From Candidatus Omnitrophota bacterium (GTDB taxonomy: Bacteria; Omnitrophota; Gorgyraeia; Zapsychrales; Zapsychraceae): a stretch of 64,000 bases of DNA. Within the stretch, counting starts at the first letter, position 1; the number at the start of each line of letters is the position of its first letter. The notes below the pieces were generated by a model. It was not told where the DNA came from and did not search any database. It saw only the letters and a program-made list of their open reading frames with translations. The translations under genes and the position numbers were made by a program. The stretch covers positions 21,557 to 85,556 of the forward strand of contig JAIORP010000120.1 in the NCBI GenBank assembly GCA_021108075.1. The letters are read 5' to 3'. This document shows positions 26-51,801 of the stretch, in pieces.

Positions 26-450
26 ATGCTAACATCCTCCATGGTATTTGAAGGGCTTGCGCTTATTGTCCTGGGATATGTTGCCTGGCGAGTGGCCTGT
101 CTAGCGGTCAGAATGATTTGGAGTATTGGTGCGATGATCAAAGATCAATTCGGCGCCAAGGGCCAATATATCATCGAGCGTGAGGGAGGCAGGGCCCGTA
201 AGACGAATAGAGGAGCGACCGCCATATCGATCATATTATTTATAAGCGGTTTTGTTTTCTTTTTTGAATCTGCCTGGGGATGGGTTGCCCATCAATCCGA
301 TATGTTGTCGCGGGAACTTCCATCGACCGGTATTGATATCATGAGCGTGTCACCTGTTCAAGCAGCATGGCTGATGATTGCGGCTTTCGGTCTGGTTGCC
401 GCGGGTCTCTTGATATGTCTCTTTAAACGTCAACGGGCTGACCAGCGATT
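26..450 (+). other. N-terminal hydrophobic segment with about 3-4 predicted TM helices
   Basis: Hydrophobic stretches LALIVLGYVAWRVACLAV, AISIILFISGFVFFF and AAWLMIAAFGLVAAGLLICLF, followed by basic KRQR. Confidence 0.5.
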
Positions 451-15400: not shown

Positions 15401-18400
15401 GTTGTGGGCTATGGATTGCCGCATACCGATTTTCTGGGTTATATCGATCAAGAACTGAACCATCATCCGTATTTAATTTGTCCGTTATCAGAACACCGCA
15501 AAGCCCTGCTTCATTTGATAAAGAATCTTCCGTTGGAAGAAAGGACGTTCCTCATTAGAGAAGTGGAGAAATATCGTATTTATGATGAGAAAGATCAGAA
15601 CTTCTACCCTATTCTTGATATCGCGTTGACCAATGGCTACGCGCATTATTACGACCTTGATATGATGGGCGGACATGATCTTGATATTGCTCCAACAGAC
15701 GTGTTCTCGAGAATAGAAGGCACGTATCAAATGACAAATGGAAGTGTGGCCAGGAAGTTCCTGAAATATATAGAACGGGGTGAAAATAAAACATTAAGAG
15801 AACGATTTTATGCGCGTTTAAAACGCGTCTTAATGACGAGCTTATTAGATGTGATTTTAAAGAATTTATCCAACGGTTCAGTCGTTGATAAAATGGCCTT
15901 ATTGCGGATCTACCATCAGCTCATCGACGAATGGATGCGGCGCAACGATGTTCGTGGTCAAAAACTAGAAGTTGCGATCCTGAAAATGCAGCATCCATAT
16001 TTCTCTGTGACCGAGATAGCGCAGGTCTTTAATTTTTCAGAAGAGGAGATTGAAAAGAAAATAAAATTAGCAAACCGGCAAATTTGGTACACATCCCGCA
16101 AGCTGGGCCGTTGGGATCAACTGCTTCCTCTATTGCTTCAAGACGGTTCATTGGTCATGACAGCTATCAGCGGTCAGGTCTTAGAACTGAGCAGAAGTTT
16201 ATCCATTTTTGTCAAAGAGCTTTCTATCCAAGGCCTGCATCAATTGCCGCCGGAACAACGTGAAAGGATTATCGCCGATAAACTGCTGAATAATAAAAAT
16301 TATGAGGATCTTGATGGAGATATTTATTCAGCAGATGATTACCGTGAATTCTTTGAAGGTAAAATTGAAGCCAAACAACGCGGGGCACTGATGGTTTTCT
16401 TCGAATGGTTCAAAAGTATTCTGACAGAAGGTTTCATGCAGAAATTAGACTCAGGGTTTAACCGTTTATCCGGGTCAGCCCAGGAGTATTACCGTGAACA
16501 TGGGGAACGCTTAAAGAGTATAGAACAGCGTTATGGATTAACACTCCCTGTCGCGCGGGAGCACTTAAGCGATATTATCCGTCGATATGAACAAAGACGC
16601 AATGCGTCTGATGTCGTTGAAGACGATGTCTTCAGACGCGACAGTGCGGCCGCGGTTAAGACTAAGGGTCCGAATATCGGTTATTACGGAAACATGCAGG
16701 GTGTTGATCAATGTCAAATCAATAGGATCGCCGATAATCCCAGATTCGTAAAAACAGTCGAGCAGCATTTAAATCTTATCCCATTTTACCGGGAGGGTGA
16801 CGTTCCTGTTCAGGTCAAGGTGTTCAAGAAGCAGCCGGACAACACACCGCCGGAAGGATTTATCTGGGCCCGGTTTGAAATGGTCGAAGACCGAAAGACC
16901 CTGGTTATTTGTTTTTCGTCTGAAAACCTCCTGAAAATATTCCTTCGAGAGTTTAGTCTTTTTGAACGTACTCCGGCATACAGTGTTATTGCTCTGCATG
17001 AGTTGATCGAATTCCAGGACGGTCATACAATTGCGGATCGGACGGCACGAAAAAGTTATCCGCGATACGATAAACGCATTAAGTCACTGTTTAAGAAAGA
17101 ACCGTTCATCACCAGCGCTAACAAAGGTCATCGTTCGATGGCAGGGAAGCAGTTGCTAGAGCTTGATATCCACGCGCGGATCCATGAAGATTTCTTGGCC
17201 GCAGACCGGGATCAAAATCAAGGAGGGGCTGAAAGAAAAGTTTCTTGGTATTATGAAAAAGGGCCCCATTATCTAAAAGGATCAAGATTACCGCCACAGA
17301 AAGATTTAATTCGGTTAGGCGTACTGCTTGAGAAAGAATTGAGCGATGTTAAAGACCTTTTACAGCGGGTACAGGAATCTGTCACCGTGTTCGGTGGAAA
17401 TATTTCTGATGAAGAGTGGCAGAAGTTTGGGTATTTATTTGGCCAGAAGTTATTTGAAGTCCAGCTTGTTCCTCTGACAGGGGGCGGACCTGGAATGATG
17501 ATGATTATTTTGAAGGGGTATATCGACGCGCGTGGAACAAATCTCTATTGGTTCTTGAAACGGTTATTATCCCGTGCCGTTCTTGCGTTCCTTCCGCATA
17601 TGCCGAAGTTCCTAATGAAATGGATAAGCTCAGGTTTGACGCAAGGGTTTAAACTCTATATAAAAGGTCAGGACCTCAACCGGTATGTTGAAGTGTACCG
17701 TTATTTCACTCATTTTATCCCGCGTAAGGCGTCTTTGATCCGCAATTCGATTGTTGTTGTTTTATATGGTGGTTTTGGTACCACGGATGAGATGTTTGAG
17801 GTCTTACGAACCGGACGAAAGTTTATTTTAGCAGATTTCTGGCGTCCGATTATCAACCGCTACCGCCATGTCTTGGCACAAAAGAATTGGGTGGAAGAGC
17901 GCTTGGAAAACATCAGATATATTCCGGATATAGAAAAAGATATCGACGGGGCTATTCAGACAGCTATTAATTGGGTGAAAGAAGATATCAAGAATCCTGT
18001 TGAAAAGAAAGAAGAACTCAAGTCAACGGTCGCCGCTTTAGACGGCACGATTCATGAGCTTAAGAGTGTCATGCCCATCCTGCAGCAATGGGATCCCGCC
18101 TTGGTCGTCATGGGCAGCAGCCGGTTAGACCCCTACCGGCGCAAAGATCAACGCGACTTGTCTATTGCCAGATACACCGGGCGAATGGCGGCACGGCATG
18201 ATCTGCCGATACGTGTTGTCGGTAAAGGTTCGATCGCCAATGCGGTTATTCAGGGTATCGATGATGAAATTAAAGACAGGGATAAACGCGAACAATATAA
18301 ACAACGACGGTTGCAGGGCATATTTTCCTCAGAAGAAGTAAATATCATTCATATCCAGCAACATTTTAATAGCCGCCATGTCATCTCGACCCAAGATCCT

Positions 18401-21400
18401 TATATCCAGAAATTGGTATTGACTGAAAATGTGATGGGCTTTGTTGTTTTACCCGGGCGATTGGGAACACTTGATATCATCAGTGATGATGCCGTTGTTC
18501 AGCAGGTTTATTATTTGGAAAATAAAGAAATGATGTTTAAGCCGATCGTCTTTGTCAACCGCTCATTCTGGAAAACGTTCTGGAGTTTTTGGTTAACACG
18601 GGTGCAGCCGTATATTATGCCGGGAGCGGAAAAGATTTTCTATTATGTTGATACAAAGCGGGAAATCTATCAGGTATTAGAAGAGATCGTTGAAGCCTAT
18701 CGAGGTGCCCGGCGTATTAAGGGTTGGGATTATGACGCCCCGTCTCAGGAAGAAAAGAAGAGCATGACTTCGGATGACCATATTTTGATTTGGCCCGTTA
18801 ACGATTGGCGGGGAGATGAACAAAAATCAACGCTGTCCCACGACCTCCGCGTCAAAGCCGGACAACAGGCGGCGGCAGGCAAGAGACCGGCTGTCAGCCT
18901 TGATAACTCGATGGCAAATTTTAATGCCTTAGAAAAATACCGTTATATTAATTTTTATCATTTTTATTCTGAAATTATTATTCAAATGGGCCAGGGACTT
19001 CTGCGGCTGGGTGTGGACCGTCAACTTATTCATAAAATCTTCTTAGACCGGGCTCCGCATCAATTTGGGCAAGATGTTGGACAAGCGGCTAAATCGGTTA
19101 ATAGTGTCCTGATGGAAACGGCAGAGTATATTTTACACGCCCAGGAGTTGTTATCCGATATCAACATTAAAGATAAATGTGCGCAGGAAAGAATTGTTAG
19201 CGATTTGGTGATTAAGTCCATTGTTCAGCAGGGTGGTCAATTTAAGTTTGATATTGAATGGTTTAAGACACAGATGCATTTGGCCGTATCAGCTGGCATG
19301 TTTAGACAATTGATTGTTCAGGAGATTTTCTTCCAACGACAAAATAAAACGATCCAGGTGATACCAGAGGAAGCCTGGAATAAGATCGCCTTCGCGGTCC
19401 AGAAATTGTTAGAAGAACACAGAGAGGTAAACGGAATTGATACCATTGAGAATATGTGGGCATTATTTGTTTTAGATCTTGAACTTCAGAGGGAAATACG
19501 CATGGATAATAAGATCAGACTCCTTTTAAAGAATATTTTCAGACGTTATTCAAGGCCGTCGAAAGACATGGGCATGGGCGCACATGGCAATATTTATGAA
19601 AACGATGTTCCATTGCTCGAACAGCTCATCCGTGAAGAGAAATATCATGCGATCATGGAATTTGACGGTGTCGTTGAAGTGAAAGGCGTGCGGATTAAAT
19701 GGCGGGAATTAAAAGAATATATCAACGGTGAAAAGAAAGAGTTCATCTACGCCCGTTGGGCTGATCCAACAAAACAGACACTGGAAATTTACTTCTCATC
19801 ACATTCAGCTGTTAAGATTTTTGATAAGTTTATCGCGCATTCATTTGTCCCAGGATACATGCACGGACATTCATTAGAACAGCGGTTACAATTATTGGCT
19901 TTACATGAGATTTTGGAAAAGCGCTTTATCGCGGATGGGTATGCGCCGTGGGTAGCCCATATTCTGGCGGAGGAACGCATTGTCCAGCAACGCGATATCC
20001 GCGTTCATCATAATTATCAAGAGCATGTCTCTGAACGCGGGCATCATTTAGCGTCGGCACTACTTTTAAACGATAAATGTCAAGGACAAGATTTGGTCGG
20101 CCATGAAAACCGACGGAAGCAATTTATTCAAGCTGTTCATGGTGGTCCCTATACAATTTTTCCGTATTATGATGATCAGGAGCAGATGGTCCTGTTTACA
20201 TTTTTCTCCGGGGGGATTTTGTTGCCGGGAAAAATTAAGTCTCAGTCGAAAGAAAAAGACTTTGAGCCATTCCGGACCATAAAAGGCGATAAGGGTACAG
20301 GGTTTGGCATGATTATCAGTAAAAGGATTATTGAAAAACATGGCGGCGCTATTTCTGTTCAAAGCAAATTTGGTGAGGGCACAACAATGTTTGTGAAATT
20401 GCCGATAAGGGCAACTGAGCCTAGGCTGGAAGTTGTAACTGTTAATAATCCTGACGGTGCATTTACCGGGATGAGTACAAAAAATTCGGATGCGAAATTG
20501 GCGGAGCACAAGGAGGATGAAGGGATTAAGATGAAGGTTACGGAGTTTAAAGAGAATGAAACAGCGAGGACATGGGTGAGCGAGAAAAGAAAAGAAGCTT
20601 CAGCCACAGCGCCGCTTTTGCCGGATAATATTGAGACGGTTGTCGTAGAGAACCGGGAAGTGAGTTACGGGTTAAAATATGTTGAAAGAGATGACGACGG
20701 TAAAGCGAGGGTGTATGTAGAACGCCCGTGGCTGGATCGGGTGGATAAATTGCGGAAGATGTATGGAGACAAGTTGGCTGAGCCTATCCTTATTTGCGCT
20801 TTTGTCCATGAATTTACAGGGAAGAGCCATGAGAATAATGTAAGGGCAGAGGGTGTTTATCTGGAGGAATATTTTGCGGACAAAGATTTTAGCAATTTTA
20901 TACCGGCTATTATTAATAGTTTAGAAAATTTGCGAGAACAAGAGATCCTGGAGCCGATAAGTAAAAAGCCTAATATTGTTCAGGACAGTACGGTTTCAGG
21001 CCTGGAGAGTAAGGTTCCGGCGGATTCTGGAGATGTTTCAGGCTCGCCGGAGAGAACGTATAAGTTGCGCGGCAAAGATGGGCTGCTTGCATGGACAGGA
21101 ATAATAACGCAGAGCATAAAACAGAAAGCTGGACAAAAGGATTCATCGGATGGATTTTATAGGGGATTTACAACAGAGCAGGTAGAGGTATTATCCACAC
21201 AGGGGTGTTATTTTGTTGTCTTAAAAAATAGCCCCGCGCATAAGCGGTTAAAGGATTTGTTCAGGAACAGGTATAGTGAGGAGGAGAGAGGGAGAAATGA
21301 GGTGATTATTACAGTGCCGGGGGCTCTTGTGGTTTTCTCGTTACATATCGGGATGCCGAGGGAAGATTTACAGCGAATGTTTCAGGAGAAATGCCGAATA

Positions 21401-24400
21401 GAACGGACGCTTTCAGGGCATGTAGATTTATTAGCAGAATTTTTTAGCACGCCGGAGAGGCGGCGTATTTATAAAGAATTCCTGGGAGAAAGTCATTATG
21501 AAGACCCTGACAATCCGGGGACAGGTATAAAAGAAGAAATTGCTTTAAGAAAATTAATAACAGGGATTATTACAGAAATAAAATTTTCTGAAGCGGTTGT
21601 TTCAGGGAAGGATACTCTTAACGGAAACGCGAGAAGGATTCCGCAGAGTTTTATCAAAGATCTGATGCAATTTTTAATAGAAAATTTTTCAGGAAAAGAT
21701 ATTGTTTCAGAGTCGACAGCGGATCAAATTAAAGGAATATATGAACGTCATGAAATTATCAGTGAGAACGGGACAAAGAAGAGATATCGCGTATTAAGAA
21801 AAAATGTTCCGCAGGTTAGAACAATGTGGGGTGTTGTTGTGTCAGATAAAGATATTTCCCCCTGGGAAACTGTTGATATTGAAGTGAATTTTGAGATTGG
21901 GAGGGATTTAAACAAGGAAGAAATAGAGCGTCTTTTAAGAAGCAGGACAATAGATGTGAGGGTAAAGGTGAAGAGTTACCGGGATGCAAACGGAGATAGA
22001 CACAATACAGAAAAAGAGGAATCTTCAACGCTGAATTACGCGGTAAGGTATGAGGATATCGAAGTAATAGAGATGTTTTATGACGAAGGGGCGACTATGT
22101 GGCGTGGCGCAGTTGAGGAATACAATAATCAACGCGCGCGGAAGGTTCGTTTTAGAATGAAGGTGCGTTTCGCCCCTGTTCCGGGTACGTACACTGTGGA
22201 GGTGTATGTAATACAAAAACAGGGAATAGTCATTGTGGATGATATAGAGGAATACAGGAAAGGGATTGTTAACATAGCGGAGCCCGGGATGTTCACAGAA
22301 GAATTTTTTAGAAAGAGGTTTCCATCGAATTATAGAAAATACATCGGGACACCTGAAAAACAAAAATGGGAGTATAAAAAAGAATTAGTGAAAGAAGTAA
22401 TCCTCTCGTTGTTTGGCAGATATATTAAAGAATGTACAGAAGCAAGGAATAGATACAGAAGATGCAACGCGCTCGCGAAATTAATATATCTGCAAAAGAA
22501 ATATAATACGGCAACAGAGTTATTAGATGGCATTGTTACCCATGAGGATCAGAGGGTGAGGCTTGCAATCGCGGAGGATATGGAATGGTTGCCTGCTAAT
22601 GACGCGTTGGTATATCTTAAGAGGCTCATCAAAGACAAAGATAAGAACGTGAGGGAAGTTGCCCTTGATATAGAGGAGGACATTAGTGATGAAAGGAGTA
22701 ATTTTTATTTCTGGCACTGGATGAGAAATTATTTCATGCCGATGGGCGGGTTTTTAAACAGGACAATAAAGAAAATCAGTAAACAATGTATAGTTGAGGT
22801 TAATGAATTTATAAAACGGAGATTAAAGGATAGCAACCTTGATTTGGAGATGGATACTAAGGAGATATTTACAGAAAGATCAGTAAAGGAATCCTCAGAA
22901 GTTATTCTTAATAAGATAAAGCTTATTTTAGCCGAAGCACAGAGGGGGATTACAGATAAAGATGAGATTGAGCACATGGAGAATATCTGTTTTAAACTGG
23001 AAGGATTTATAAAAGTTTTGGATTCTTTCAATAAAGTGGAAGACCTGATAAGAATAGGAAAAAGGAGGGACGAGAGTATAGAACAGGCATTAACAGAAAA
23101 GGCAGAGTTAATTAAACAGGAGTTTTCTTGTATGGAAAGATTCATGAAGATGTTGCGGCAGGAAGGCGCGATTGTAGCAACATATTTGGAAATTATTAAA
23201 GAAAAACATATTATTATAACAGGAATGATCGATTCGATATTAAACCTTGGCAAAAAACAGGCAGTGCGTACAGAGACGATAAAAGATATTGTTATTAGTT
23301 TACAGTATGTGGAGAATTTAATGAAATTGGAAAGGTTAAAGAAGGCTAAGAAATTAGAGGCGTCGGGAGAATCAGAAAAGGCAGAAAAGTTAAAGAAAAC
23401 CAGCCTTAAGATAACATTTAGCTTTGGTAAAGGCGTGAACCTTAATACGGCAGTAAAGGTAGAAAAGACATTTGTAAGGCTTCTTGGTGAAATGGTTAAG
23501 AATTCAGAAGAGCATGGAGGAGAAAAGGTAACTATTACTTTTGTCCCTAACAAAGACAAGGTTACGATTCTTTATATAGACGATGGAGAAGGACTGGATG
23601 TTAATACAGGAGCAGAGAATATCTTCCTGCCATTATTTAGCGCAAAGGCCAAGATTATTTTAGACAAAGAAAAATGTGATCCAAAAAAGGAAAAATTAAA
23701 TGCAGATATTGTAAACAAAGTATACCTTTTGAGAAAGGGTGTTGAAATCATTGGCGGGCAGGTGGATATTGTCGAGCCAAATGGAAAAGGTTTTCAGTTA
23801 AGGATTACCGGTTTGCCGATTGAGTATGATCCGGAAAGATTTTATGACATCGGCGATATGTATGAATACCTGAAGAAAGAATTTGAAACGGCATTATCGC
23901 GGTTAGAGGATGTTGATGAAGATTTACTGGATACAGGGGATGTTCAGCATCTTGGAATGTTATTAATTCATTCCCTTGAAGAATATCGTGATGCTGTTAT
24001 TAAGGGAAGAATGAGATTTATTTTATCAAGCGCGGAAGAAGTAAAAAAGCAGTTAAACATATTGTCCGAAGAATTAGTAACTCTCCAGCATTCGGATAGT
24101 TACCTGGATGACCCTGATGTCAGGGGTCAAATAGATCCGGTTTTAATAACATTTGATAGGATTTTACGTCAGATAAAGTTAACGTCATTATCGTTAAGCC
24201 ATTCAATGAAAGATGTCTCAATAGGAGAATTTATGCAGAATATGATCAACCGGTTTAACGATGAAGTACAGGATGTAAATGTTAATCTTGAAATAGATGA
24301 GAGGATATTGAATGAGACGATTTTTACATTTTATGACCATCTTGAGGCAGGACTGACGAAACTGCTCTGGTATGCTGCTGCCTTTGAGAAGCCCGAAGGC

Positions 24401-27400
24401 TGTGAGATACAGATGAATGTGCGGCTGAATAAAGAGATGGCGGGGATAGCAAAGGCAGAGCAGGATGCTGAAATGCCGGTTATTTTTGTAGGGGGGCTTG
24501 GAGGTTCCAAACGAAATGAGGCAATACGGTTACTGTCGGGATTAGGGATATTCCTTGAGGTAGAGGTATTTGTAAAAGGCATGAGCCTTCCTGGGGAGAT
24601 AGTCAAAAAGGTAAGAGATGCACGCTGTCCGATGATAGACGCGAAGCATATTGAACATACATGGTTTGGCCTCTGGTGTCTGGATAATCAGTTAAAGGGT
24701 GTAGGGGGGCATTTACAGGTTGTATCCGAAGATTCCGGAACAAAATTTGTATTGTATGTGCCTGTTAATACCACGCCGGAGCTTGTTAAGAAAAAAGAAC
24801 TGGAGGGAGGGCGTTCCATTAATATGGGATTTTTCTCAAAGGTGCTTGCGTATTTTTGCCGGCAGGAAGGGATAGATTCTGATGACAACGATGCCCTTGT
24901 TAAATTATTGCGGGAACTTTATGTGGAAGGATTAAATAAATTTAGAGAAGAACCACTGCCTTTCTGGCGAGAATCCAGTACAGAGCCACAAAAAATTTCC
25001 GGTGAAAATATAAGAGATCAAATTAAAGATGCGATGATGGCTCTGGAAGATTATAAATTGATGGAGAAAATCACAAAGAACCCTGCTGTTCAAAAAGAAT
25101 ATCAACGGATAAATCAGGAAGTAATAAAATATAATAAAGCATTGGGATTTAAAAATGTTGTTTTAAAAGTTAGGGATTTGAGAAATACAGGGCAGCAGGA
25201 CAGGCATGGCCTGGAGGTATATGTTCGCCTTGACGGCAGTTTGCAGATACGTTCAGCCTGGCTGGGACGGCATCCTTCGGCTGTTGGAGAGCAGGATTAT
25301 GCAACAGGTGTAAAGAAAAATGGTATTGCAGTCGACGATGAAGTAAACCGGAAAGAAATTATAAGCATCGACACAGATAAACTTAATCCTCTCGCAATAT
25401 ATTTGACAATACAAACGGAACTTGTCAGAAGAGGATTTTTTTGCCGCAATGAATTTGTAGAGGCTTTGGGTAAGTTTAAAGAGAACGGATTTATTCATGA
25501 AGGGTTGTATCGAAGGTTGCTGCATGTGGTTAGAGGGAAGGTGGAAAAGGTTGAACAGGGTAGGCAGGAGGAAGATCAGTTAATTTCGGATTATTCAAAA
25601 ATCGACCCTGCCATTAATTGGGTAAATCCTGAAGGTGTGCCGGAAGGATTGGAGGGGGCAGAGGAAGGGGCATATTCAGGAGATACTTTTGATACGAGGT
25701 TGAGTGGCGAGGAGATAAGAAACGGTAGCTTTTATTTGAGGGGAGCGCTCGGGGCAGCGTTTGCAAGGGCAGTGGCGCAAAGGGCATTGGCGCAGGCAGG
25801 GGATGGAGCTGTGGAAGAAGTGGAAGGAAAGATAAGGAACAAATTTGTCGGCTATATTATTAAGAAAAATAATAAAGGTGAATTAGTAAGCATTCTCACC
25901 GCCTACCACAGAAACAGCGATACAATCCTCATCAGCAAAGCACTCCCAGCAATAATTGAAGCACTTAATAAACATCCTGAAATAGGGCGTAAAAATGGAA
26001 AACTCGGCGCGGGAGATATCCTCGCACAGGATCTTTGTGACCACGAATTGTGGCATAGAGGGGAAGGCAGGTCAGGAGCTAAAGCAGAAAATGAAAGAGA
26101 GGCAATAGATATCCTTCGCCTCCATGTTCTGGCAAGAGAGAACGGTATCGACATTAACACCTTTGCAGATGTCCTGGTTGAGATGAACGTTATTACGCCG
26201 GAGTTTGCAGGATTGTTGAAGAAGCCGGATGTAACTAAAGGGGTGCCGGAAGGATTGGAGGGGGCAGAGGAAGGGGCATATTCAGGAGATACTTTTGATA
26301 CGAGGTTGAGTGGCGAGGAGATAAGAAACGGTAGCTTTTATTTGAGGGGAGCGCTCGGGGCAGCGTTTGCAAGGGCAGTGGCGCAAAGGGCATTGGCGCA
26401 GGCAGGGGATGGAGCTGTGGAAGAAGTGGAAGGAAAGATAAGGAACAAATTTGTCGGCTATATTATTAAGAAAAATAATAAAGGTGAATTAGTAAGCATT
26501 CTCACCGCCTACCACAGAAACAGCGATACAATCCTTATCAGCAAAGCACTCCCAGCAATAATTGAAGCACTTAATAAACATTCTGAAATAGGGCGTAAAA
26601 ATGGAAAACTCGGCGCGGGAGATATCCTCGCACGGGGTCTTTGTGAACGCGAATTGTGGCATAGAGGGGAAGGCATGTCAGGAGCTAAAGCAGAAAATGA
26701 AGTGGTAGAACGGAAAGGGCAAATAATAACAAGTCTGAAGATAAAAGGTAAGAGGCGACCTGTTAAATATAGATTGTACTGGAGAAAAGGCAAATTAATC
26801 TGTTCATCATTGGAAGATATTTCTCCTGAAAAAGCAAGAGAATTGGGGGTAGATAAGGTTAGTCAATTTAAAACTGATGTTAATGGGGTATTATGTGTTT
26901 TAGAAGAAAAAATATTTTTAACAAAGAAGTACAAAAACAGGGAAGGGTATGCGGAGGTTAATGAGGCTGGTGTAGTTTCGAAAATAATATTAATGAAAAC
27001 AAAAAGAGATAAGGAGGTAGAGATTGGGGTAGAACGGGAAGGGGAAATTATAACGGGTTGGAAGATAAAAGGTGAGAAGCATTCTGTTAAATATAGATTG
27101 TACTGGAGGAGGGGTAAATTTATTTGTTCATCATTGAAAGGTTTTTCTTTTAAAAAAGTAAGAAAATTGGGGGTAGATAAGGTTAGTCAGTTGAAAGTGA
27201 ATGCTTTGGGGGTATTGACCGTGCTTGGTGAGGGTATACCGATAGGGACTTGTTATGCAGAAAGAGAGGGTTTTGCTTTGATAGACGGTTCGGGAGTACG
27301 GGAGATAACATTGATTGCAACAAGGCGGGAGCCGGAAGAGAAAATAAAAATCAAAAGAGAGGGTAGAGTTATTAAAAAATTTGAATTTTATTTTCAGGGA

Positions 27401-30400
27401 ACTGAAAGTGTAAGAGAAGTTGCATATATTTCTTTAAGGCGGGAAGATGGGCACCTGATATCATATTCTTCCTTATGTGATCCTTATTTTATAAGTAGGA
27501 AAATTAAGAGAAATAAATTCAGCGGTATAGTAGAGGGCATGGAGGTGACTAAATTCGGGTGGGTAAGCATTGGGATAGATAACTTTTTTATTCCGCAGAC
27601 ACGCGGCTGGGCTGTAGATATTAAGTATGATAACGGAGAGGCAGTAAAACTTTATCTGATTAATCCTGAAAGTGGAGAAAGATTAGAAAAAGATGCGGAA
27701 GAGGTAAAGGTAGAAACAAGTGACGAGTGGACAGAAGAAAGAAAAGCAATGTTTAAGAGAAAAAAGGGTATTATTCTTGATAGGGCTAAAAGATATTGTA
27801 ATTATGCAGGTATATATGGAATAAATTTCCATGAGCTTGTTTCAGAAGGAGAAAAAGCATTAATGGGAGCAATATTGCGTAACTATAAACCTGGAGAAAT
27901 TAGATATGAATATGCAGTTCTTTGTATAAATGGAGGGATGTTAAACCTGATTGATAATGAGAGAAAAGCAAGAAATATCAGAAAGCAGGACAGCAGGAGG
28001 ATAGCCTGGTTATACAAAACAATGCAAGAGCTGGAAAAGGAATTAAATAGAGAACCTGAGGCTCAGGAGATATGTGAGGCGATGGATATAAGTATGGAAG
28101 AGTTATTTGAGATACAGAAAATTCGGGGAAGGTTAGCCACCTCTAGTATGGATTTTCCGACCGGAGGGAGAGGGGAAGAATACAGGTCAATGCATGAAGT
28201 AATAGGCGATAAGGCAATGTTAGCAGATGAGATAATGGAGGCGTCAGAACGGGAGGCAGCCATTAGAGATGCAATGAGTAGGCTGTCGGAAGAAGAAAGG
28301 GAATATATCAGGATGCTTTTTGGATTTAATGAAGAGATATATTCAGCGGAAGAAATTGCTCGGTTAGAGGGAATTACCTTGGAGAAATTTAATGTCATTA
28401 AATTCGAAATATTTGCGAAAATGGGAGAATATGTAAAGGAGTATAGTTCGCATGGATCGAGGATTAAAGGAAGAATTGAGCAAGATTCAAAAATCGACCC
28501 TGCTATCAATTGGATGGCTCCTAAAGGTGTGCCGGAAGGATTGGAGGGGGCAGATGAAGGGGCATATTCAGGAGATACTTTTGATACGAGGTTGAGTGGC
28601 GAGGAGATAAGAAACGGTAGCTTTTATTGGAGGGATTTGTCAGCGGGAGCGCTCGGGGCGGCGCTTGCAAGGGCATTGGCACAGGAAGGGGATGGAGATG
28701 TAGAAGCAGGGGAAGGAAAGACAAGGTACAAATTTGTCGGCTATATTATTAAGAGAAATGATGAAGGTGAATTAGTAAGCATTTTCACCGCCTACCACAG
28801 AAACAGCGATACAATCCTCATCAGCAAAGCACTCCCATCAATAATTGAAGCATTTAATAAACATCCTGAAATAGGGCGTAAAAATGGAAAATTCGGCGCG
28901 GGAGATATTCTCGCAGAGGCTCTGTTTAAACATGAACTGTCGCATAGAGGGGAAGGCAGGTCAGGATCAGATGTGGAAAAGGAACAAGACGCAAAAGATA
29001 TCCATTGCCACCGTGATTTGGCAAGAGAGAACAGTATTGACATTAATACCCTCGCGGATGTCCTGGTTGAGATGAATGTTATTACGGTGGCATTTGCAGG
29101 GTTGTTGAAGAAGCCGGACATGATTCCGCAGTCAGAGGTGAAAGGAGACAGGGAAGAAATTGTTTTGGAACAAAGTGGATGGGCCTGCGCGGCCTGTGGA
29201 AAATCTGTCGATGGTTTGATCCAGCGATGGGAAGAGACCATTATTGAAAGGAATGACCTGCAGGCGCTCAAAGCCCGGGTGAAGACATCAAGAACTGTTT
29301 ATGAGACGACATTAGACCATACGGGTGTTGATGCGCGTTATCTACGCGTTGGATCATTTATTTTAATCGATCGATCTGTAGATCAAGCGCAAGCGTGGCA
29401 GGCGGTATTACCCCATAACGTCATTTTAATCGAACGACCATTGGAGTATGACACATACATTGTCTCTATGATCGCCGCGCTGTTGGATCTGGCACAGGAA
29501 AATATTTTGAATAATGCTGTTGTGGAAATCCACGGTGTTGATACCGGATTGATGGTTTATGTGGCCTTGCGTTTGGGAGCAAAGCGCGTGGTTGGGATTG
29601 ACCGTGGAGAAGAAGCCATTCAACAAACGGCACAGTTGCTGAGTGACCATCATTACCGGGGGGCTGTTTTAACTGAAGAAGACTGGTTCACTTATGCGAG
29701 CGAACAGGATGAGGATTATGTCCTGGTTCAAGGGGAGTTAAAGAATTGGTATGCGGTATCGTATCAGCAACGTCAAAATTTACGCGGTCAAAAGGAGTAT
29801 ATCCGTCTCAATGATACGGGGCCGCATTATTCCATTCATCAAGACGCGATGCGAGACATGTTAAGAGACCCCGACGCTGTTGCCATCGTGCTTGGTAATT
29901 ATATTAATTCATCGCCTTTGGCCCGATCGCAAACCCCCGGCGGTTTAAAATCCTTAGGGGATGAAGTCGATATTTCAGCCCTGCAGGCCATCGGTTGGAC
30001 AGTGGAACAAATTGCTTATCCGACAAAATATAAAGATTTTGTGACGCTTGTTGCTCAAAGGGAGCGGAACGCGTCAAAGAAAAAATTGGCCGATCACCCG
30101 GTCGAAAATCTTGGCCGACAGTCCGGGGATCCCGGGTTTCTCACCGGCCGGCCAGTAACCGTACAGTCCATTCCACAACCGCGTAAAGTTTTTGTCGGAG
30201 GAGGTGAGCGCGTCAATCAAGAGGATTTCGTTCCTGTTATCACAGACAGCATCAAGCAAGTCGCGCAAACACAATTAACCCGGTTATTAGATCGATATCA
30301 TTTTGATTCCAATGCCGTCTTTTACCGTTTCCATCAGGGAACAGATCCAGCGCAAACGCTTGAACAGGAACGCCAACAGCTGATCGATGCTCAGGGTGGA

Positions 30401-33400
30401 ACATGTTTGGGTTTATCCTCTATGTTACAAGAGAACATGTTGACGGCATTATTTCGACCGGACTTTGCCAGTGACTTATCGCGCCGTCTGGGATCAAGGG
30501 TTGATACGCATATTTTAGAACATGATGACCGTCAATACCGTTTCGTCATTACTGTCGATGGCAAAAATTTTGTCATTCATGGGTATTTAATCGGCGCGTT
30601 AGCGATTGATCAATTCAATCACCGTTCCAGATCCCGCGTGTCTGCCCGGGAGAGTGAATATTATCGTTACCTGCATTATGCTAATATACTGAAAATTTAT
30701 AGTGAGCAGGAGTCGGTTGCCGCGTTTGTCAGCGATCCGGGCTTTGGTGTTCATTATCTCCTTCCATTAAATGAATCCGTTATGGGGTTACGCGCTCAAG
30801 TCAGGGTCCGGCCGTTAGCGCGCGATGAATGGCCTGTCTATCAATATGATAACCGTGAACTGGCGTGGTTCAACCGTCCGGCTTACCGGGTTTTTGGTGA
30901 AAGCATTCAGAATAAGTTGTTGATTTTAGAAGGGGTGTCCGCGCGCCCAATGGTCTTTGTTGATCAACTGTCTGAATCTGTTTACCGACGACGTTTTTAT
31001 CAAGGGTATCTCGCGATCAGCTTAAATAATATTCAGAGGATTATGCGTTTTGAAGCGAAGACGGGCAGAGTCAAGGTATTGGCCGAAGTATCCTTTGGCT
31101 CCGAACGAAGTCCGCGGTTGACGTTTAAGCTAAGATATTACAACGCGCAAGGAAAACGAATGAAAGTGGTCTTAAATGAAAAACAATTGCGCTTAGCGCT
31201 TGAAAACATGCGTACTTATCGAGAAGGGCGGGATCAAACAGTTTTGCCGAGACACAGCGCGATGGCGCTCGAAGCCGGAGAACTATTGGGACAAACACGA
31301 CAAGAGTGGGAAGACCGTATTGCCGTTATTTTAGATCAATTCGCATACCGTAAGGAAAAGACATTCAGGACTCAATCCGGCCTGTCTGAGAGCACTGTGC
31401 CGGAAGGCGCGTGGGATGTGGATCAGCGCACATATGTCACAGAAGATGACCGTGTTTACGATAAATTTGATTATCAGGATCTGGTCGAGCAGGGTTATAC
31501 CGTCTATAGGAATCATCAGGTCGAACTGGTATTCTTATTACGTAAAGACGCGTCGGTCGTCTTGATCGATGTCATTGCCGTGACAGATCGTCAAGCCATG
31601 GAATACATGGGATGGATCCATGCGAGCTTCCGGTCGCCGTTAATGCTTGACCGGTCCTTACATGATGTTGATTTACGTTTCACTTTGGCCACGGTTGAAT
31701 TCTTATCCGGACTGGACGCGAATATACTGGACGAGATTTATCACATGCCGCGGCAACAAGTGGCCTTGTTTGTCGATCTGTCCTATCAGAATGTTAAGAA
31801 ATACGCGCAATTTTATAATATTGATAAAATATTGATGAGTTCGGTCTTGAACCTCGCGCAGCACTCGGGATTTGAACGCTTCACCGTCAATCCGGCCCAA
31901 AATAAATACGACTATTACCGCGAACGTTTTCACGCAGAGTCCTCCGGTCATTTTACCCGGAACATGCTGGATATGGTGTATTACCTGGCGATTGACATTA
32001 CCGAACAGATCGATATGCCATATATTCTTTTTGATCGTGATCATTTGAACCGGCTCCGATATTTGCTTGTTGAACGCAGCCATCCAGCGCTTGATACTGT
32101 TGTCCGTGTCATTATTCGCGAACGCGCGACAGGACGTTATTTGGTGTTGCAAAAATTAGCGGCCTCAGTCGCTCCGGGCTGCTGGGAAACTCCTGGTGGA
32201 AACGTCGATACATACGAGACATGGCGACAAGCGGCCTTAAGGGAAACAGAAGAAGAGACCGGTTTTGATATTGATTGGGTCGAGGCATTGAATCCAGGGC
32301 AACCGGTGATTTGCTGTTTTGACCGGTTTGTCCGCAGAATTTATGGTTTTTATACGGAGATGGATCGCGTGCACGAACCGTCTATTAATAATAAGTTCAA
32401 AGAAGATGGAACATGTGAAGATAAGCATGCCGCAGCCAGTTGGAAGACGGAGAAAGAAATAAGAATACTTATGGACATGAACCCATCTGAACAGGCCTCC
32501 ATGCTGAAGACCAGCCGGGTTGTTTTTGATTTGCTGTTGTCCGATGGCGTTATCGACATGGAACGGGTGTCAAGAATCGTTCATTGTGTTCGTGATTTAC
32601 CGCGAAATTGCGCTTATAAGAATGTCTCCACGAAAGAAAAATCTGATTTATTAACACATCTCCTGATTCAGATCCACCGGAAGCAAATAGATGAGGTTGT
32701 CGAGCGGCAATGGGATGACGACGGAAACATTCAAAATTATTACATCAAGGCCGGAGCATTAAAGACTGCTCTGCAATCTAAATTGTATGTTCAACCCGTT
32801 AAGGATAACTATTGGCATGTGGTCACAGATAAAGCCCAGTTTTATCGTGGGCCGGAAGGAACGGATAACCCTTGGACGATTCAAGACCTTGATGATGACG
32901 ATTACGTTGGAGCACGCAAACGTAAAAGACGTTCCAGACACGATAAAGAATCCGTTGTTAAATTAGAGATGGAGAAAAAAGCACAGCCGGATCATCAGAT
33001 TGAATACATTCAAGAACGCCGGATCATCAGCCGTAAGTTTATCACCCGCTCCATCAAAGAATTGGATATGTATTGGCAGATGTTTGATGTGATTTATCCG
33101 GCGATAGCCATTTATGGTTCAGCTCGAATCCCATCTGCTGTGGGCAGAGACCTGGCCAAACGTTTTTCAACATTAGGCTACGCGATCACAACCGGTGGAG
33201 GACCGGGTTGTATGGAGTCAGTCAACCAGGGCGCGTTAGAAGGCCTTCGACGGTTATCTGTTGGTTTAGGCCTGAAATTGCCGTATGAAGATAAATTAAA
33301 TGACTATGTTAACATCCCATTTGAATTTCAATACCTTTTCACGCGGTTATTAGCCTTCCTCACATTTAATCGCGCCCATCTGCATGTCAAAGGCGGGCTG

Positions 33401-36400
33401 GGCACATTAAATGAATTCTTTACCGTGACAGCGGCCAAAGAGATCGGTTTTATCTCGGGAGATACACCAATCGTCCTGATCGATAAATGGATGTGGGGTG
33501 TTTTTGATCAATTGATTCGGCAATGGGATGATCGCGGCTTTAGCTCTTACCGTGCGCAGGATATGTATCAACTATACGGCGCAAAACAAAGATCTCAAAT
33601 TGTCCATGATGTCCATCAGACCGCGAAGCATATGCAACGCCAGAACGTGTTATGTATTAACACCGAACTGATTTTTAGGGAATTGAATAATATTAACCGG
33701 CGGCTGAAGGGGCTTGGACCGACAGTCGGTATTATCGGTGATGACCGCAGTATACGCGAAGGAGAGTATGACTTCGGCGTCGCTGAAAGATTGGCGTCAG
33801 TTTTGGCAAAAGAAGGTCTTTCTATCCTGCGCACCAGTGAACGGGGGATCGGCGACGCTGTGCATCGGGGATTTGTCGATGCCCGCCGTGTTGCGCGGCA
33901 GGCTCCGTACAGAGTCAAAGAGCGTTTGATCGGTACAGCCCATGACATCAACGGAAATGGGAATGGTACAGCCCATACATTAAAACTATCATATGACTTT
34001 TTAAAGAAGATCGTGCTGAGCAGTCCATACACGGATGCCTTGATTGTCTTCCCGGGCGGTTATCACGTGATGGATGTTTTGATGGAAGAAGCGTGCTTGA
34101 TCAAGACCCACAAGATCGCTCCCCGGCCGATAATCCTCATGAACAGCAGGTATTGGACCCCATGGCGTGAAGATTTTCTGCGGGCTAAAATGGTCGCTGC
34201 CAAAACAGCCAATCATAAGGAAATCAATTATTTACATATCGCGGATACGCCGGAACAGGTCAAAAAAATTCTGATGCCGCATTTGTATCAGCAAGGTTGG
34301 TATGGTGAACAGGCCAAGACCTCAAAGTCCAGGGCGATCGTCTCTAACATCGGCAAGGTTTCTTCGAAGAGAAAGCAGCGTAATAAAAGCAAGAAGAATC
34401 AAAATGGCGATAAGAACGATCATTCGATCCGTCCGGTTGTCCAACTTCTTATCGGTCTATTGTTATTCTGGTGGCCGAAAGTGGGTAAAGGTTTTAGGCG
34501 TGTTGGTACTGAAACGTTCAGGGCGCGGAACGACTATTTATTAACATCAGCAACTTATCGCGGCCCACCATGGGTGAAGGTTATCGCGGCCTTTGTCCGA
34601 GCTTGGCTTTTACCGGTTGCCCGGGGCGTTGATGCGGACGGTCAGGTGCGCTGGTATGTGCCGCGATCGTACCGAATTTTAAATCTGTCCTATCAGACTC
34701 AATATTCGATTGACCGGCATGAAAGACAATATTCCGCACGTCCTATCCTCGGACTCTTTTTAGGGGAATTTAAAGGCCTTCGGGCCCAGGTACAGGGATT
34801 CCTCAATAAAGAGTGGATGTTTGAATATTTAGATCGCTTAGACATCATGCAGTATACACAGAAAGATAGCTTATACGGACGAGGATTATCAGTGCCCCGT
34901 GAACACGCAACTTCTTTATTCGACCGGCTCGTTCGGTCCAAACATCTGCACGCGTCTTCGGATGTTTTAGGGCGTGAATATCAACGTGTTTTCAGCCAGT
35001 ATTCTGCCTTCTGGGCTGATCATATTCTCGCGAGCCATGCTTTGATATTATCCGGGGCAAAAAATATCCGGCGGGATTCTGTTACGGTTGTCGGTGTTGG
35101 CGCGGCAAGGGAGATTCCTTTAACGGAATTAGCGGTGCTATTTAATACAGTCAAGATTATTGATATGGATGACTCAAGTTTGAGAGATGCCTACCTATCT
35201 GTTCCGGCCCAGGCTGTTGATGAAACCGGGGTACTATTGCGGTCGAAAATTCAGATGATTCAAAGGGATATAACAGATGATCAGATGCTTCAGTTAGCGC
35301 GGGCAGGATTGAAGATTATCGAACAGAATACAGAACCTCAAAAAGCTTATTTAGAGTTGGTCAAATTGTACCGCGACACAAAATTGCAACCGGTGTCCGC
35401 AATGGATGACGATTTGGCCGCCTCCTATATTGTTTCTTCATGTGTTTCCAGCCAAATCATGTGTTATCCCGTTGATTTTATCTACCAAAAATTCTCTAAG
35501 AAATTCGGCCTAAAATGGGATGACCTGGAAGCATGGAATAATATTTTGGAAAAAGATCAGGGATCTGCGCTATTGACGGTTTACCACGACGCGTTTGAGC
35601 GACTTCAGTTGCAGGTCTTCAGCCAGCATGTCCAACTGCTGCAGTCCATCGTCCATCCAGAAGGGCATATTTACTGGTCTGATACGGTCATATCATTACC
35701 GCTGCTCCAGAGCATGAAAAAGGAAGATATGGGGCTGTTTTATGACCGGTACTTCAGGGCGATCAAACCTGATATCGCAAGGATGGATGCTGACAGCGCG
35801 GCGCAGGCAAAGTTTGAAGATCGTAAGCTTTATTACCGCCGAAAACATCCGTCATTGGGCGAAGACCGGATCGCAGCCATTGCTTATATATCATTGATGG
35901 GTGAACAGATTCTTCCATTTAAGAAAGAATATAAGGGCATCTGGACTTTGATGAAAATAGCGCCAAAGGTTTCGACATCTGCTATCGGCCACATGCTGAA
36001 TCAGGAACAACTGCAACAGCTGGAGTGTATTTTAGGAACACCTGACAGCCGCAGAGACTGGTTCTGGGTCGCGAATCCATTTAATGTTTCCCACGGAGAG
36101 TCAAACGGCGCTTTCCTTGTTCAATCCAGATTGTTTACAGCACGGGATAAAAAAGCACTTCTCTCAGACAAGGCGTCGAGTGACCGGTCCGCTCTGGTTG
36201 AGCAAGAATTCTCCATGGAAGTCGAAGACCCCGGCCTGTTTGAAGAACAGATGAGTTGTACCGCAAAGAATGGTTGGTTCTGCGCGGCGTTACCGGATAT
36301 GTCCGGAAAGGTGGCGGTCATTCGCCGGTCAGGGATCGGGAAGGCGAAAGCCTTATCGGAGATCGAACAGATTATCCGTCAGGAACAATACTTACAGTTC

Positions 36401-39400
36401 AAACCTTTTACTTTGACGTATTCCTGGATTAAACAGGTGTTGGCATATTACGTCTCCATCAATAAAACAATACAGGCGCAGCAACTAACCGCGATGGTTA
36501 AACAGGGATTTGTCCGTGCCGGCCCATTGAAATATTCAAGAGGTTTCGCTTTCGGGGATTATATTGTTATTGCCGATGAAGATGTTTGCAATCCAGGTGC
36601 TCTTCTCGTCAGCTTGTCGAATGGTGCACGGCTTTCCGTTCTCAATCATCGGACACGTTTATACTTTGGCATATACCAGTTCACTCAAAGATTGCGGCAA
36701 TATCCTGTCCGGCTCCGTGACCGCCGCAAATTAAATCAAGCCGGATTAATCAAGTTTGCCGGAAGACATAATAAAATCCTTCCGGAGAAGTTGAGCAAGT
36801 CGTATCACGAATTAACCGGAATATACATCGGATTAAAAGGCCTGTCAGAAACGCTTAAATATTTCGGTATCGCTTCAGGCGTAAGCGGGGCGTTATGCGG
36901 CCAGGTCTGGCTGGGCGTCCTTGTCTTTCTGTTAGGCCTGTTTGCCGGTGGTTTAACGCGTATGAGTGTCACTTTAGTCCTTAAAGTAACGCGCTACCGG
37001 GATATCCCGCTGCGACGGTTATTCTATCCACCGGCGCTATTGCCCTATTTTGGTTTCCCGTATTGTCTGCTTGTCTTATCAACACCCAGGTATACGCTCA
37101 GAGAACTGCTGGCGTTAAGAAATATTTATTACAAAGTCAAATGGGGGCTCGTTAAAGCGGTTAAAGATGGTGATGTCACAGATGGACAAATGCAGGTTAT
37201 TCGCGGATCCTTACTGGAAGTTTCCCGGGATATTCTTGATTATCAACGAACGCATTTAACCCTCCGTCAAGGATATCGCGGAAGAGCGGAACGTAGGATG
37301 CGTATCAGATATCCAAAATTCAGTTCAAAGACAGAACCGTATATGTTCACAGCCCTGCTTAAAGGACGTCCGTTCTTATTTGTCGGTTCAAGCGCTGGCA
37401 TCGAAAGGACGAGGAAAAAGGTGCAGCAAAGATTCGGCTTGAAGTATCAGCCGAAAATATATTACTACGATATCAGTCAAGTTTTGAATGTTTCCAACGG
37501 TGATGCCTGGCCAGAAACTTTTGTTAAACCGTTAATGGCTGATACAGAGGAACGTTCCCCTCAAACGGTGGTGCATATGGAACCGCGAAAGAAAGATGCC
37601 CCTCAGCCACGCATGACCGAAAGTCGAGTTAAGTTGGTCTATCAAAATGTGCATGGAAAAGTAATCGCTTGGGTTATTAATAAGAAAGGATTATTTGTTC
37701 TAAGGGAACAAATATTTGAAGGGGTTCTGGAAAAACAAATCTTCATCGGTATTTATCACGTTTCAGCAGATGATGGAGCAGAAAGTCGTGTCGGGGAGCG
37801 TAAGTATGTTATCCGGGAGGATAAAATTATTGCCGGAGCTTCAGGAGATTATGATTTCCATATTGACCCGTCCTACAGATCTCTTGGTCTGGGAGTTGTG
37901 GTTTTGACCCACGTATTTAAACAAGCGGTGGCCCATCAAACAGATATGATGATAATTCATTTTCCGGAATACCGTATCCAACAGACATTGCAGCGGGTAT
38001 ATGGTTTTGGTCAGGAACGGTTTAAACCGGGTATAGGCCGTTTTATCGAGAAAACTCATTTGCGGCAGCAAGCCGACGAATTTGTCTGGCTCGTAGAGGA
38101 TCATTTAGCGCGGCGTCAAAAGGAAAAAGCGTTTCAGTCCCGGTTCATAACAGCGTTTCAAAAGGGCGCTGAACCAATTGAGGTTATTTTAGAGAAGAAA
38201 GATCTCTCGGCTGATTCCATTCATTCTCAGGCAGGTTTAAGCCGGGCAGGTCGAATCAAAGAAATTTTATCGCGTAACTGCGTCTATCAGGCAGTAACGG
38301 TTAAAGAACGGAGATTATTGGTTCAGGCCATTGAGGCTTCCTCCCGGGAGGACAGAGCGCTGTTAAGGGTTGCGCCGCATCCGGTATCCGGTCAGGCAAA
38401 AGTCTGGTTAGATGCGTCCTTTGCCAGAAATTTTGTTCAGCAGAAGATGAAATATCCTATTTATGTTGAAAACATCAAACCAGGGTATTGGCATGCCATC
38501 AAAGAATACCGGCCAGGATCTGTTCCCATCTTCGATCCAGCAGTGACGGGTTGGATAGGTGCTAAGTTAAAGAACCGGGAGAAAGCTCAAATTCTTATGC
38601 AAGAGATTGAATCTTTATTTGCGCAAAAGCAAAAGAATGTTTCATCCGCTCGTCGATTTTTTATTCGCCAACGCGTTAAATCGCTACAGGCCCGGGTCAG
38701 GCGGTTTAAGAAAGACAAGAAATATGCGACGTTGATTTCTGATTTAGAACAATGCAAAGTTGATATGGCAAGCCCGTGCGACTGGAACAAATCATGGGAT
38801 CTCGCGATCCGCCAACAAAAAAGCAAGAAGCAAAGAGTTCAGACATCAGGATTTTTAAAGGAAAAAGTGTTTGGCCTGATGCGTCGGCGACACAAAAAGG
38901 GCGCACCGGATGAGGTCCTGGATGTTGACTCAATTGAAGAGGTACAGGAAGTAGAGTCGGAACAGCCAGAAACTGTTGCCGCGCAATCAGCAGATCTTCG
39001 ATGGAAGCCAACACGTCCAACGTATACCGGACGAGAAATCCGGAAATTTTCGCGCATAACAATCAATCAGAGAACAAAATTTATCAGCGATTTAGAGCGT
39101 GTCCGGCTTCGAGTAAACGGATTCGCGCGAGAACAATTGACCGATAAGACAAAAGCAGCGTTCACTCGGGATATTAAGGCCTTATCCGATAAGATTCATG
39201 CGGGTAACGGGGAAAGCGCGTCTTTCTTCCGAAGAGAAATCAAAAAGATTCAAGCCGTTCTTGATCAGGTCGATGTCCAGGAGATGAAAGATGCTGAAGG
39301 AGTGATAAAGGACAAGAACGGCAAGAATAAAAAGAGTGACGGCCAGTTCATGCCAGCAGAAGGGGATCAAAGCGCTCAAGCGGATATGGTTGGTACGATG

Positions 39401-47332: not shown

Positions 47333-47485
47333 GGTGAGGTGTGAACCCCTTTCTTATGACGCTTGAAAAGGCATCAGATAACATGCCTGTTGCCTTAGAA
47401 TAATGCTTGATGCAGCTTTTTATATGACGTGTTTATCATAGGTAAGGCTTTGTCGTTTTACAAGAATAAAAGTAAAAATATCCTC

Positions 47486-47525
47486 TTGACAAAGAGTGTA
47501 TTAGTGTATTATACTTCTAATACAC
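47486..47525 (+). promoter_or_regulatory. Putative sigma-70 promoter overlapped by a GntR-type operator palindrome, upstream of the gntR-ABC operon
   Basis: TTGACA at 47486-47491, an 18 nt spacer and TATACT at 47510-47515. Inverted repeat GTGTATTAG (47496-47504) / CTAATACAC (47517-47525). RBS AAGGA at 47537-47541. Confidence 0.4.
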
Positions 47526-47550
47526 ATGATGCAAAAAAGGATAATTGATC

Positions 47551-50211: not shown

Positions 50212-50273
50212 AGACGTGTTGAGTGCTGTTGCAGGCACTTAGCATGAGACTCAGAAGAAGGGAGGTGAATACG

Positions 50274-51148: not shown

Positions 51149-51158
51149 ACGATATTTT

Positions 51159-51776: not shown

Positions 51777-51801
51777 CGTTTAATTATGGGAGGGACTTAT
51801 T

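Follow-up and report, generated by a model that had tools for sequence, protein, structure and literature searches.

A putative zincin-like cassette family in a giant open reading frame of Omnitrophota, with copies apparently reshaped by recombination

A 'multi-enzyme' class of very long proteins has been described in Omnitrophota (Nielsen & Lui 2026, 10.64898/2026.06.07.730766), and cleavage of the giant proteins of this phylum by embedded proteases has already been hypothesized (West-Roberts et al. 2023, 10.1101/2023.11.21.568195). The candidates in both studies are C39 and S8 peptidase domains, and an M36 metallopeptidase is found in a giant protein from outside the Omnitrophota (10.1101/2023.11.21.568195). 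Recent nucleotide-level repeats are uncommon in long genes (Nielsen & Lui, 10.64898/2026.06.07.730766). Here we analyze a domain of about 210 residues, referred to below as the unit, that occurs in three copies within a single giant open reading frame (ORF) of a Candidatus Omnitrophota bacterium. The ORF lies in a 64,000-nucleotide stretch of contig JAIORP010000120.1 (assembly GCA_021108075.1), and this whole stretch is called the window. The unit is probably zincin-like, and two of its three copies retain an intact HExxH motif.

The closest described parallel is the zincin-like metallopeptidase (MPTase) domains in the polyvalent proteins of phages and conjugative elements, the core of which consists of a sheet, a helix with HExxH and a second helix with a Glu ligand (Iyer, Burroughs, Anand, de Souza, Aravind 2017, PMC5512222). 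These domains occur in one to several copies per very large polypeptide, between unrelated enzymatic domains, and their clades show no specific relation to classical peptidase families; autoproteolytic release of neighboring domains has been proposed for them and is, for most polyvalent proteins, a prediction (PMC5512222). The unit resembles these MPTases in its predicted sheet/HExxH-helix/Glu-helix layout and in the presence of several copies among unrelated catalytic domains. However, it is located in a chromosomal giant gene of Omnitrophota, near mutS/mutL and ABC transporter genes and with no recognizable phage or plasmid. It also has no detectable sequence similarity to Pfam or PHROG metallopeptidase models, its matches to viral structures are not significant, and its Glu is located just 11 residues after the second His.

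Minigluzincins (selecase, projannalysin and proabylysin) are compact HExxH metallopeptidases, and one of them (selecase, PDB 4qhi) is the best and sole plausible solved-structure match to the unit model, albeit a marginal one (root-mean-square deviation 7 A, 13% identity). Unlike the minigluzincins, the unit is twice as long, carries a conserved N-terminal motif and has extra C-terminal helices; it is also embedded in a giant protein, whereas the archaeal minigluzincin is a standalone protein of ~110 residues. The ImmA/IrrE (M78) and SprT/Wss1-type zincins, small HExxH domains that are frequently joined to regulators or located next to them, are weakly echoed among the folds of a viral structure library, but there is no significant sequence or structure match to them and the third ligand and spacing of the unit differ. 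The giant ORF in the window belongs to the same phylum as the published multi-enzyme giants and shares their methyltransferase, HATPase, HD, NUDIX and HEAT content; it differs in containing an orphan zincin-like cassette rather than C39 or S8, and a repeat pair that is 98% identical. The giant-gene context, the idea of an embedded processing protease and the placement of zincin-like cassettes between the domains of polyvalent proteins are already known. New are the family itself, which is absent from the searched profile libraries and amounts to four representative clusters in 1.84 billion, its occurrence as repeated cassettes in a giant gene of Omnitrophota, the natural and very probably dead copy, and the apparent, unusually recent homogenization at the nucleotide level.

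The unit as a domain family and its predicted fold

The initial annotation, made from the letters alone, described an uncharacterized domain of about 200 residues, and profile searches bear this out, with no match in Pfam, PHROGs, NCBIfam or the PDB sequences. For the unit, Pfam is empty at E<=10 and NCBIfam at E<=0.1, and the PDB sequence searches return only a spurious urease match (E 0.78). When the seven members of the family alignment (A2) are compared with Pfam, just three isolated sub-threshold matches are obtained, one member each (best E 0.032; PhageMetallopep E 0.2), together with two matches in PHROGs, and no profile match is above threshold.

Relatives were sought exhaustively with HMMER among 1.84 billion representative proteins, and four are recovered at E<=1e-3 (E 4.8e-9 to 1.5e-4). 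A k-mer-indexed protein search with the unit and the family alignment is empty, a method that also misses the four HMMER relatives. Neither the unit nor alignment A3 retrieves anything from scans of GTDB genomes, JGI metagenomes and IMG/VR, and there is no viral-contig match for the unit. Judged by its sequence, the unit is a very rare, previously unclassified domain family of about 210 residues.

The unit is the only region common to the four relatives, and the only one common to them and the window ORF, and its contexts in the four are quite different. In P0004 it lies near the N-terminus of a 1,077-residue protein, and P0005 (L005 585-3965; 1,126 residues) contains two copies. P0006 is a 3,437-residue fragment spanning the whole of a 10.3-kb contig from a metagenome-assembled genome (MAG), and in it the unit (2033-2281) is found between an alpha-amylase (1592-2003) and a methyltransferase (2291-2432); the order of unit and then methyltransferase is common to this protein and to copy 3 in the window. 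The fourth relative, P0007, is called as a 311-residue protein.

Two further observations concern these relatives. The two unit copies of P0005 flank a different zincin-like stretch (NAVHEFIHAKV…NEGMTEY), which brings the HExxH modules in that protein to three. For P0007, on a Logan contig (SRR22388306; L002 2196-2400), the called start is a GTG at 2376, but the frame upstream of it already encodes the conserved N-terminal motif of the family. The frame is open back to a single TAA (2199-2201) that closes a 723-residue methyltransferase-like ORF, with no canonical start in between, and this TAA could reflect a nonsense mutation or a sequencing error, or be a readthrough site in a once-continuous multi-domain protein. 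An intein or other self-splicing element was also considered for the unit and rejected, since the translations have no terminal Cys/Ser/Thr or His-Asn signature.

The seven sequences in A2, which share 27-35% identity with copy 1, are invariant at the H, E and H of HExxH, at a Glu 11 residues after the second His and at an Asp 18 residues after it. The motif is not due to chance, since H, E and H are invariant in seven sequences with so little overall identity. The embedded copies also conserve an N-terminal motif, P-A-x-x-W..A-P ... G-A-Y-x-G-D-T-x-x-T-R-L-S/T-G-E-E/D-I.

A model of the unit from AlphaFold2 (AF2), built with the seven-sequence alignment, has a predicted local distance difference test score (pLDDT) of 80.1 and a predicted template modeling score (pTM) of 0.79; the single-sequence model (pLDDT 35) is unusable. 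In the alignment-based model a helix (50-67) is followed by five strands (81-114), a short helix, the HExxH helix (139-157), the Glu helix (162-182) and two more helices. The invariant Glu starts the helix directly after the HExxH helix, and the N-terminal motif is modeled with pLDDT near 90. As in zincins of the gluzincin type, HExxH is located within a predicted helix in copies 1 and 3, whereas copy 2 has RELWH. Structure prediction had been proposed in the initial annotation as a check on whether HExxH sits in a zincin-like fold, and the model does place it in such an arrangement.

Foldseek identifies selecase as the best PDB fold match (borderline E 0.013, prob 0.99, template modeling (TM) score 0.58 on a 106-residue target) and gives no other plausible PDB fold match for the unit model. 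The viral structure library yields no significant match, and the weak ones include IrrE N-terminal-like (E 0.12), SprT-like (E 1.1), metallopeptidase and polyvalent-protein entries. On the basis of the alignment and the model, we consider it likely that the unit is a zincin-like domain family with a gluzincin- or minigluzincin-type architecture, and we infer that the intact copies would bind zinc through His-His-Glu and hydrolyze peptide bonds.

The three copies and their divergence

Copies 1 and 2 match each other over 467 nt (25629-26095 and 26235-26701) with nine mismatches (98.1%), and a run of 293 nt within this match (25637-25929 in copy 1) contains none. The offset from copy 1 to copy 2 is 606 nt, or 202 codons, and the reading frame is kept. 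Compared at the same offset, identity drops to about 25-30% at 26096-26233. The duplicated share of the 606-nt period is thus 467 nt, and the 138 nt at 26096-26233, which encode the C-terminal tail of copy 1, occur once and are not repeated after copy 2. Copy 2 is therefore a partial copy directly after a full copy, and not one element of a clean tandem array in which the whole period recurs head to tail.

These results modify the initial annotation, which had described near-identical 0.6-kb tandem repeats produced by a very recent duplication. The near-identity is confirmed, with four mismatches in the 397 nt at 25634-26030 (99.0%, offset 606), although the second range given there (26241-26637) is one base off; the correct range is 26240-26636, and the uncorrected one, at offset 607, gives an identity of only 32%. 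The recurrence at 606 nt also stands, but just 467 nt recur and a 606-nt array is absent from the output of Tandem Repeats Finder. Recency is upheld by a synonymous divergence (dS) of 0.02 between copies 1 and 2, but with copy 2 shortened at both ends this is no simple tandem duplication. The third copy, which had been put at about 75% identity, is 89.0% identical to copy 1 in nucleotides and about 80% in protein over 206 aligned codons with two small indels. Translation confirms HELWH in copy 1, HELSH in copy 3 and RELWH in copy 2, as well as the absence from copy 2 of the C-terminal tail found in the other two. The repeats as such are real; what had been overlooked is the one 15,549-residue ORF that encloses all three copies.

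Two of the copies, 1 and 3, are complete and keep HExxH together with the Glu and Asp downstream of it. In copy 2, ~13 residues are missing from the start of the unit and ~46 from its end, and with them the invariant Asp, most of the Glu helix and all but one of the four C-terminal helices. Its RELWH arises by one CAC>CGC change at a His that is kept in every other family member. Having lost these parts of the unit, copy 2 is very probably inactive. Its junctions read KKPDVTK/GVPEG at 26234 and AKAENE/VVERKG at 26701. Hidden Markov models (HMMs) of the unit and of the family detect no further copies in the giant ORF.

Substitutions between copies 1 and 2 were counted by the Nei-Gojobori method over 154 shared codons. 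There are six nonsynonymous and two synonymous changes (dS 0.020; ratio of nonsynonymous to synonymous divergence, dN/dS, 0.87), and a stretch of 15 codons that includes the motif (residues 8668-8682) holds five of the six nonsynonymous changes (Q>R, D>G, D>E, H>R and R>M). This pattern indicates that copy 2 evolves without detectable constraint, as if neutral. From its sequence, copy 2 can be described as a recently generated or recently homogenized partial copy, probably a by-product of recombination. Between copies 1 and 3, dS is 0.18 and dN/dS 0.58 overall, and dS in successive thirds of the unit is 0.13, 0.02 and 0.45. This unevenness suggests that gene conversion between dispersed cassettes fits at least as well as a single duplication; more generally, the patchy dS (0.02-0.45) together with the near-identity of copies 1 and 2 points to gene conversion or intragenic recombination. 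The repeat is, with high confidence, real and recent. Copy-number instability at copies 1 and 2 is plausible because they contain a 293-nt perfect direct repeat 606 nt apart, and a deletion between the repeats would stay in frame.

Residues 9043-9493 of the window ORF have a collinear counterpart, 61% identical, in a partial protein from another Omnitrophota MAG (P0008, L006; GCA_023137395.1). The match covers a set of 108-residue repeats and the sigma-70 domain that follow copy 2. It breaks off among the first residues of copy 3, and beyond this point P0008 has unrelated HEAT-like sequence. Because the homology ends where copy 3 begins, the unit can be said to behave like a self-contained cassette, one that the window ORF has and the related MAG lacks at the corresponding junction. 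Nor is it essential for the sigma module, since P0008 keeps that module without the unit.

The giant open reading frame and its surroundings

The coordinates of the three copies and of the features next to them are given in Table 1.

Table 1. Features of the unit copies and of the giant ORF, with their positions in the window
Feature	Position	Strand	Basis
Single 15,549-residue ORF, multi-enzyme giant gene (46.6 kb), holding all three unit copies	26..46675	+	No in-frame stop; Pfam domains in one frame
Unit copy 1, complete (residues 8524-8736): N-terminal motif, beta-sheet, HExxH helix, Glu helix, C-terminal helices	25595..26233	+	Translation, family alignment A2, AF2 model
HELWH of copy 1 (H8673, E8674, H8677), putative zinc-binding/catalytic motif	26042..26056	+	Invariant in A2; in predicted helix 139-157
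Glu8688 of copy 1, putative third zinc ligand (E165 in A2)	26087..26089	+	Invariant; start of predicted helix 162-182
C-terminal tail of copy 1 (REAIDIL...LLKKPDV)	26096..26233	+	In copies 1 and 3, not after copy 2
Unit copy 2, partial (residues 8737-8892)	26234..26701	+	98% identical to copy 1
RELWH of copy 2, first putative zinc-ligand His changed to Arg	26648..26662	+	Translation
Two clear ~108-residue repeats; a third, diverged, continues to about 27700	26705..27373	+	65% nucleotide identity, dS 1.1; kept in P0008
Sigma-70 family domain, regions 2-4 complete (residues ~9240-9466), between copies 2 and 3	27743..28423	+	TIGR02393 RpoD_Cterm E 1.4e-16; Pfam Sigma70_r3/r4
Unit copy 3, complete (residues 9488-9699)	28487..29122	+	89% nucleotide identity to copy 1
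HELSH of copy 3; conserved Glu at 28976-28978	28931..28945	+	Translation
Methyltransferase-like domain downstream of copy 3	29501..29722	+	Methyltransf_31 / CbiT-like, weak match

The Pfam domains of the giant ORF, all in one frame, include Bac_transf (sugar transferase), HD_5 (HD-GYP-type), HD_4 (RelA/SpoT-type), HEAT, several LOG/SLOG domains (LOG/Lysine_decarbox), HATPase_c, Sigma70 r3/r4, NUDIX, an AAA_11/AAA_12 helicase and methyltransferases. SecA, dockerin, C39 and S8 have no Pfam match in the ORF at E<=0.01. With more than 10,000 residues, an Omnitrophota genome and many distinct enzyme domains, it is a giant multi-enzyme protein of the kind described for this phylum. The local order is copy 1, partial copy 2, two clear and one diverged 108-residue repeat, sigma-70, copy 3 and the methyltransferase-like domain. 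The two intact copies, 1 and 3, thus bracket a module made up of the 108-residue repeats and the sigma-70 domain, and the gap from the end of sigma-70 to the start of copy 3 is about 20 residues.

The giant ORF contains six HExxH motifs, compared with 0.63 expected from its composition (starts at 3263, 3971, 6071, 8651, 26042 and 28931). A second HExxH module, unrelated to the unit (…AIDAHEQAH[HR][AE]GLNEKAAY), is itself duplicated, at 3719-4039 and 5819-6139, 700 residues apart. Its two copies share 83% nucleotide identity (dS 0.40), each adjoins a predicted transmembrane helix, and they have no family match. The HEMLH module (residue 2876) has a weak SprT-like Pfam match (E 0.07), and the other HE modules have none. 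Several further 'hairpin plus HE-helix' stretches (residues ~5656, 6625 and 6926) are alike by eye and unrelated by profiles. The possibility that the other HE modules (residues 1080, 1316/2016, 2876, 5656, 6625 and 6926) are diverged copies of the unit was rejected, as profiles detect no sequence relation.

The region from ~20000 to 29300 is strongly purine-rich on the coding strand, with a GC skew of 0.25-0.55 as against about 0.08 elsewhere and an AT skew of up to 0.25. This block of ~9 kb, rich in Glu and Lys and poor in Gln, closes shortly downstream of copy 3 and could be a super-module that was separately acquired or is separately evolving. Repeats of other kinds occur elsewhere in the ORF. 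A double LOG/SLOG module of ~435 residues is present twice, at 11219-12529 and 33002-34309, 7,260 residues apart and with 57% nucleotide identity; to judge from its saturated dS and a dN/dS of 0.2, this pair is an old duplication under constraint. The C-terminal 790 residues (44306-46663) comprise three to four diverged repeats with 43-69% amino acid identity, each with a hydrophobic segment and a conserved ARYQ[RT]PDYRSLW[ND]H[VI]F motif. A crude hydropathy scan places transmembrane helices mainly near the N-terminus, at residues 1350-3050 and at the C-terminus.

Downstream of the giant ORF, 46856-64000 holds ordinary chromosomal genes. By eye these include a signal-peptidase-like gene, a GntR-type regulator, an ABC ATPase with its permease and large membrane proteins, and mutL, mutS and a faint CheC-like protein are also found there. 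In NCBI, the MutS and ABC-transporter proteins beside the giant ORF carry the annotation of a Candidatus Omnitrophota MAG. The window contains no tRNA, and a reading of its ORF list, without screening against mobile-element libraries, brought up no phage or plasmid gene.

Possible roles of the unit and alternative explanations

Overall, we lean towards the explanation that the unit represents a zincin-like cassette family in an Omnitrophota giant ORF, that its copies have been reshaped by recombination, and that its putative role is in processing. If the intact copies act as peptidases, their most likely substrate would be the giant polypeptide itself, cut at or near module boundaries, because the cassette is located between unrelated modules, its N-terminal motif is conserved and the two intact copies bracket a plausible free product. 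The conserved N-terminal motif (KIDPAINW...GAYxGDTxxTRLSGEEI) would be a candidate cleavage site or, alternatively, an autoinhibitory segment. Cleavage would free neighboring modules, such as the 108-residue repeats with the sigma-70 domain. We regard this self-processing role, which matches the one put forward for the MPTase domains of polyvalent proteins (PMC5512222) and is in line with the published idea that Omnitrophota giants are cleaved (10.1101/2023.11.21.568195), as tentative.

Several points weigh against the explanation that we favor. The AF2 model rests on an alignment of seven sequences, and no sequence profile ties the unit to a known peptidase family. The copy number of the repeat rests on a single short-read (SPAdes-type) contig. 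The dN/dS of 0.58 between the intact copies 1 and 3 is high, so that constraint may be weak, and in P0008 no unit follows the sigma module; this absence and the high dN/dS between copies both oppose an indispensable role.

About as possible as self-processing is that the unit is real but does not process its own polypeptide. It could be an effector protease whose targets are proteins of a host or prey or other proteins of the cell; it could also be a spacer, zinc-binding or structural and without catalytic activity, that persists by linking modules. The MPTase domains of large conflict proteins may also be effectors (PMC5512222). A dN/dS of 0.58-0.87 between the copies suggests weak constraint, the ORF tolerates a shortened, in-frame copy 2, no unit follows the sigma module of the related MAG, and in P0004 the unit lies at the N-terminus and not between known domains. 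On the other side, HExxH, Glu and Asp are strictly invariant in all seven intact family sequences at about 30% identity, which argues for retained catalysis. The conservation of the N-terminal motif in embedded copies and the repeated location of the unit at domain boundaries fit a role in cis, but an effector role is compatible with both.

A specific, anti-sigma-like partnership of the unit with the sigma domain was rejected, as the relatives place the unit beside an amylase and a methyltransferase or at an N-terminus, and P0008 has the sigma module without the unit. A bolder version of self-processing, which we think rather improbable, is that the 15,549-residue ORF encodes a true polyprotein. 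Unrelated HExxH cassettes (the unit, the duplicated HEQAH, HEMLH and HEDIH) would then cut it in cis where modules meet and free enzymes and regulators, including a sigma-70 pro-protein stored between two cassettes, and the cassettes would double as recombination handles that shuffle modules between giant genes.

It is unlikely that copy 2 is an assembly artefact, that is, a strain variant or a repeat loop of the de Bruijn graph threaded twice, and not present in the genome. The contig does come from a short-read metagenome assembly (SPAdes-type, cov 17), the 293-nt stretch of perfect identity is longer than the usual k-mer sizes, and the few differences in copy 2 could be strain single-nucleotide polymorphisms. 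However, copy 2 has its own junctions on both sides, for which an assembler path needs read support, the frame is kept (606 = 3 x 202), and a loop would repeat all 606 nt rather than 467 nt. In addition, assembly records of 100,871 and 100,940 bp for the locus, which may share reads, differ by 69 bp and not by 606, and copy 3 is unaffected in any case. It is just as doubtful that HExxH is incidental, in a non-metal-binding repeat with a zincin likeness produced by the prediction, as might be argued from the missing profile link to any peptidase family, the Foldseek E of just 0.013 and the pLDDT of 35 from a single sequence, since H, E, H and the Glu at +11 are invariant across the family, the model places the motif in a helix and the Glu in the next one, after a beta-sheet, and the sole plausible PDB match is a metallopeptidase.

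Whether Omnitrophota giant proteins function as single chains or as cut products is an explicit question in 10.1101/2023.11.21.568195, and the unit is a compact candidate for the cutting activity. With a natural, very probably dead variant (copy 2), both flanks and a conserved junction motif available, it is a testable candidate. If the processing role is wrong, a new and rare zincin-like domain with ordinary intragenic duplication would remain. The unit also adds a domain family that current profile libraries have wholly missed, and its copies provide a rare instance of very recent nucleotide-level duplication or gene conversion inside a giant gene, which bears on how giant genes grow and are reshuffled.

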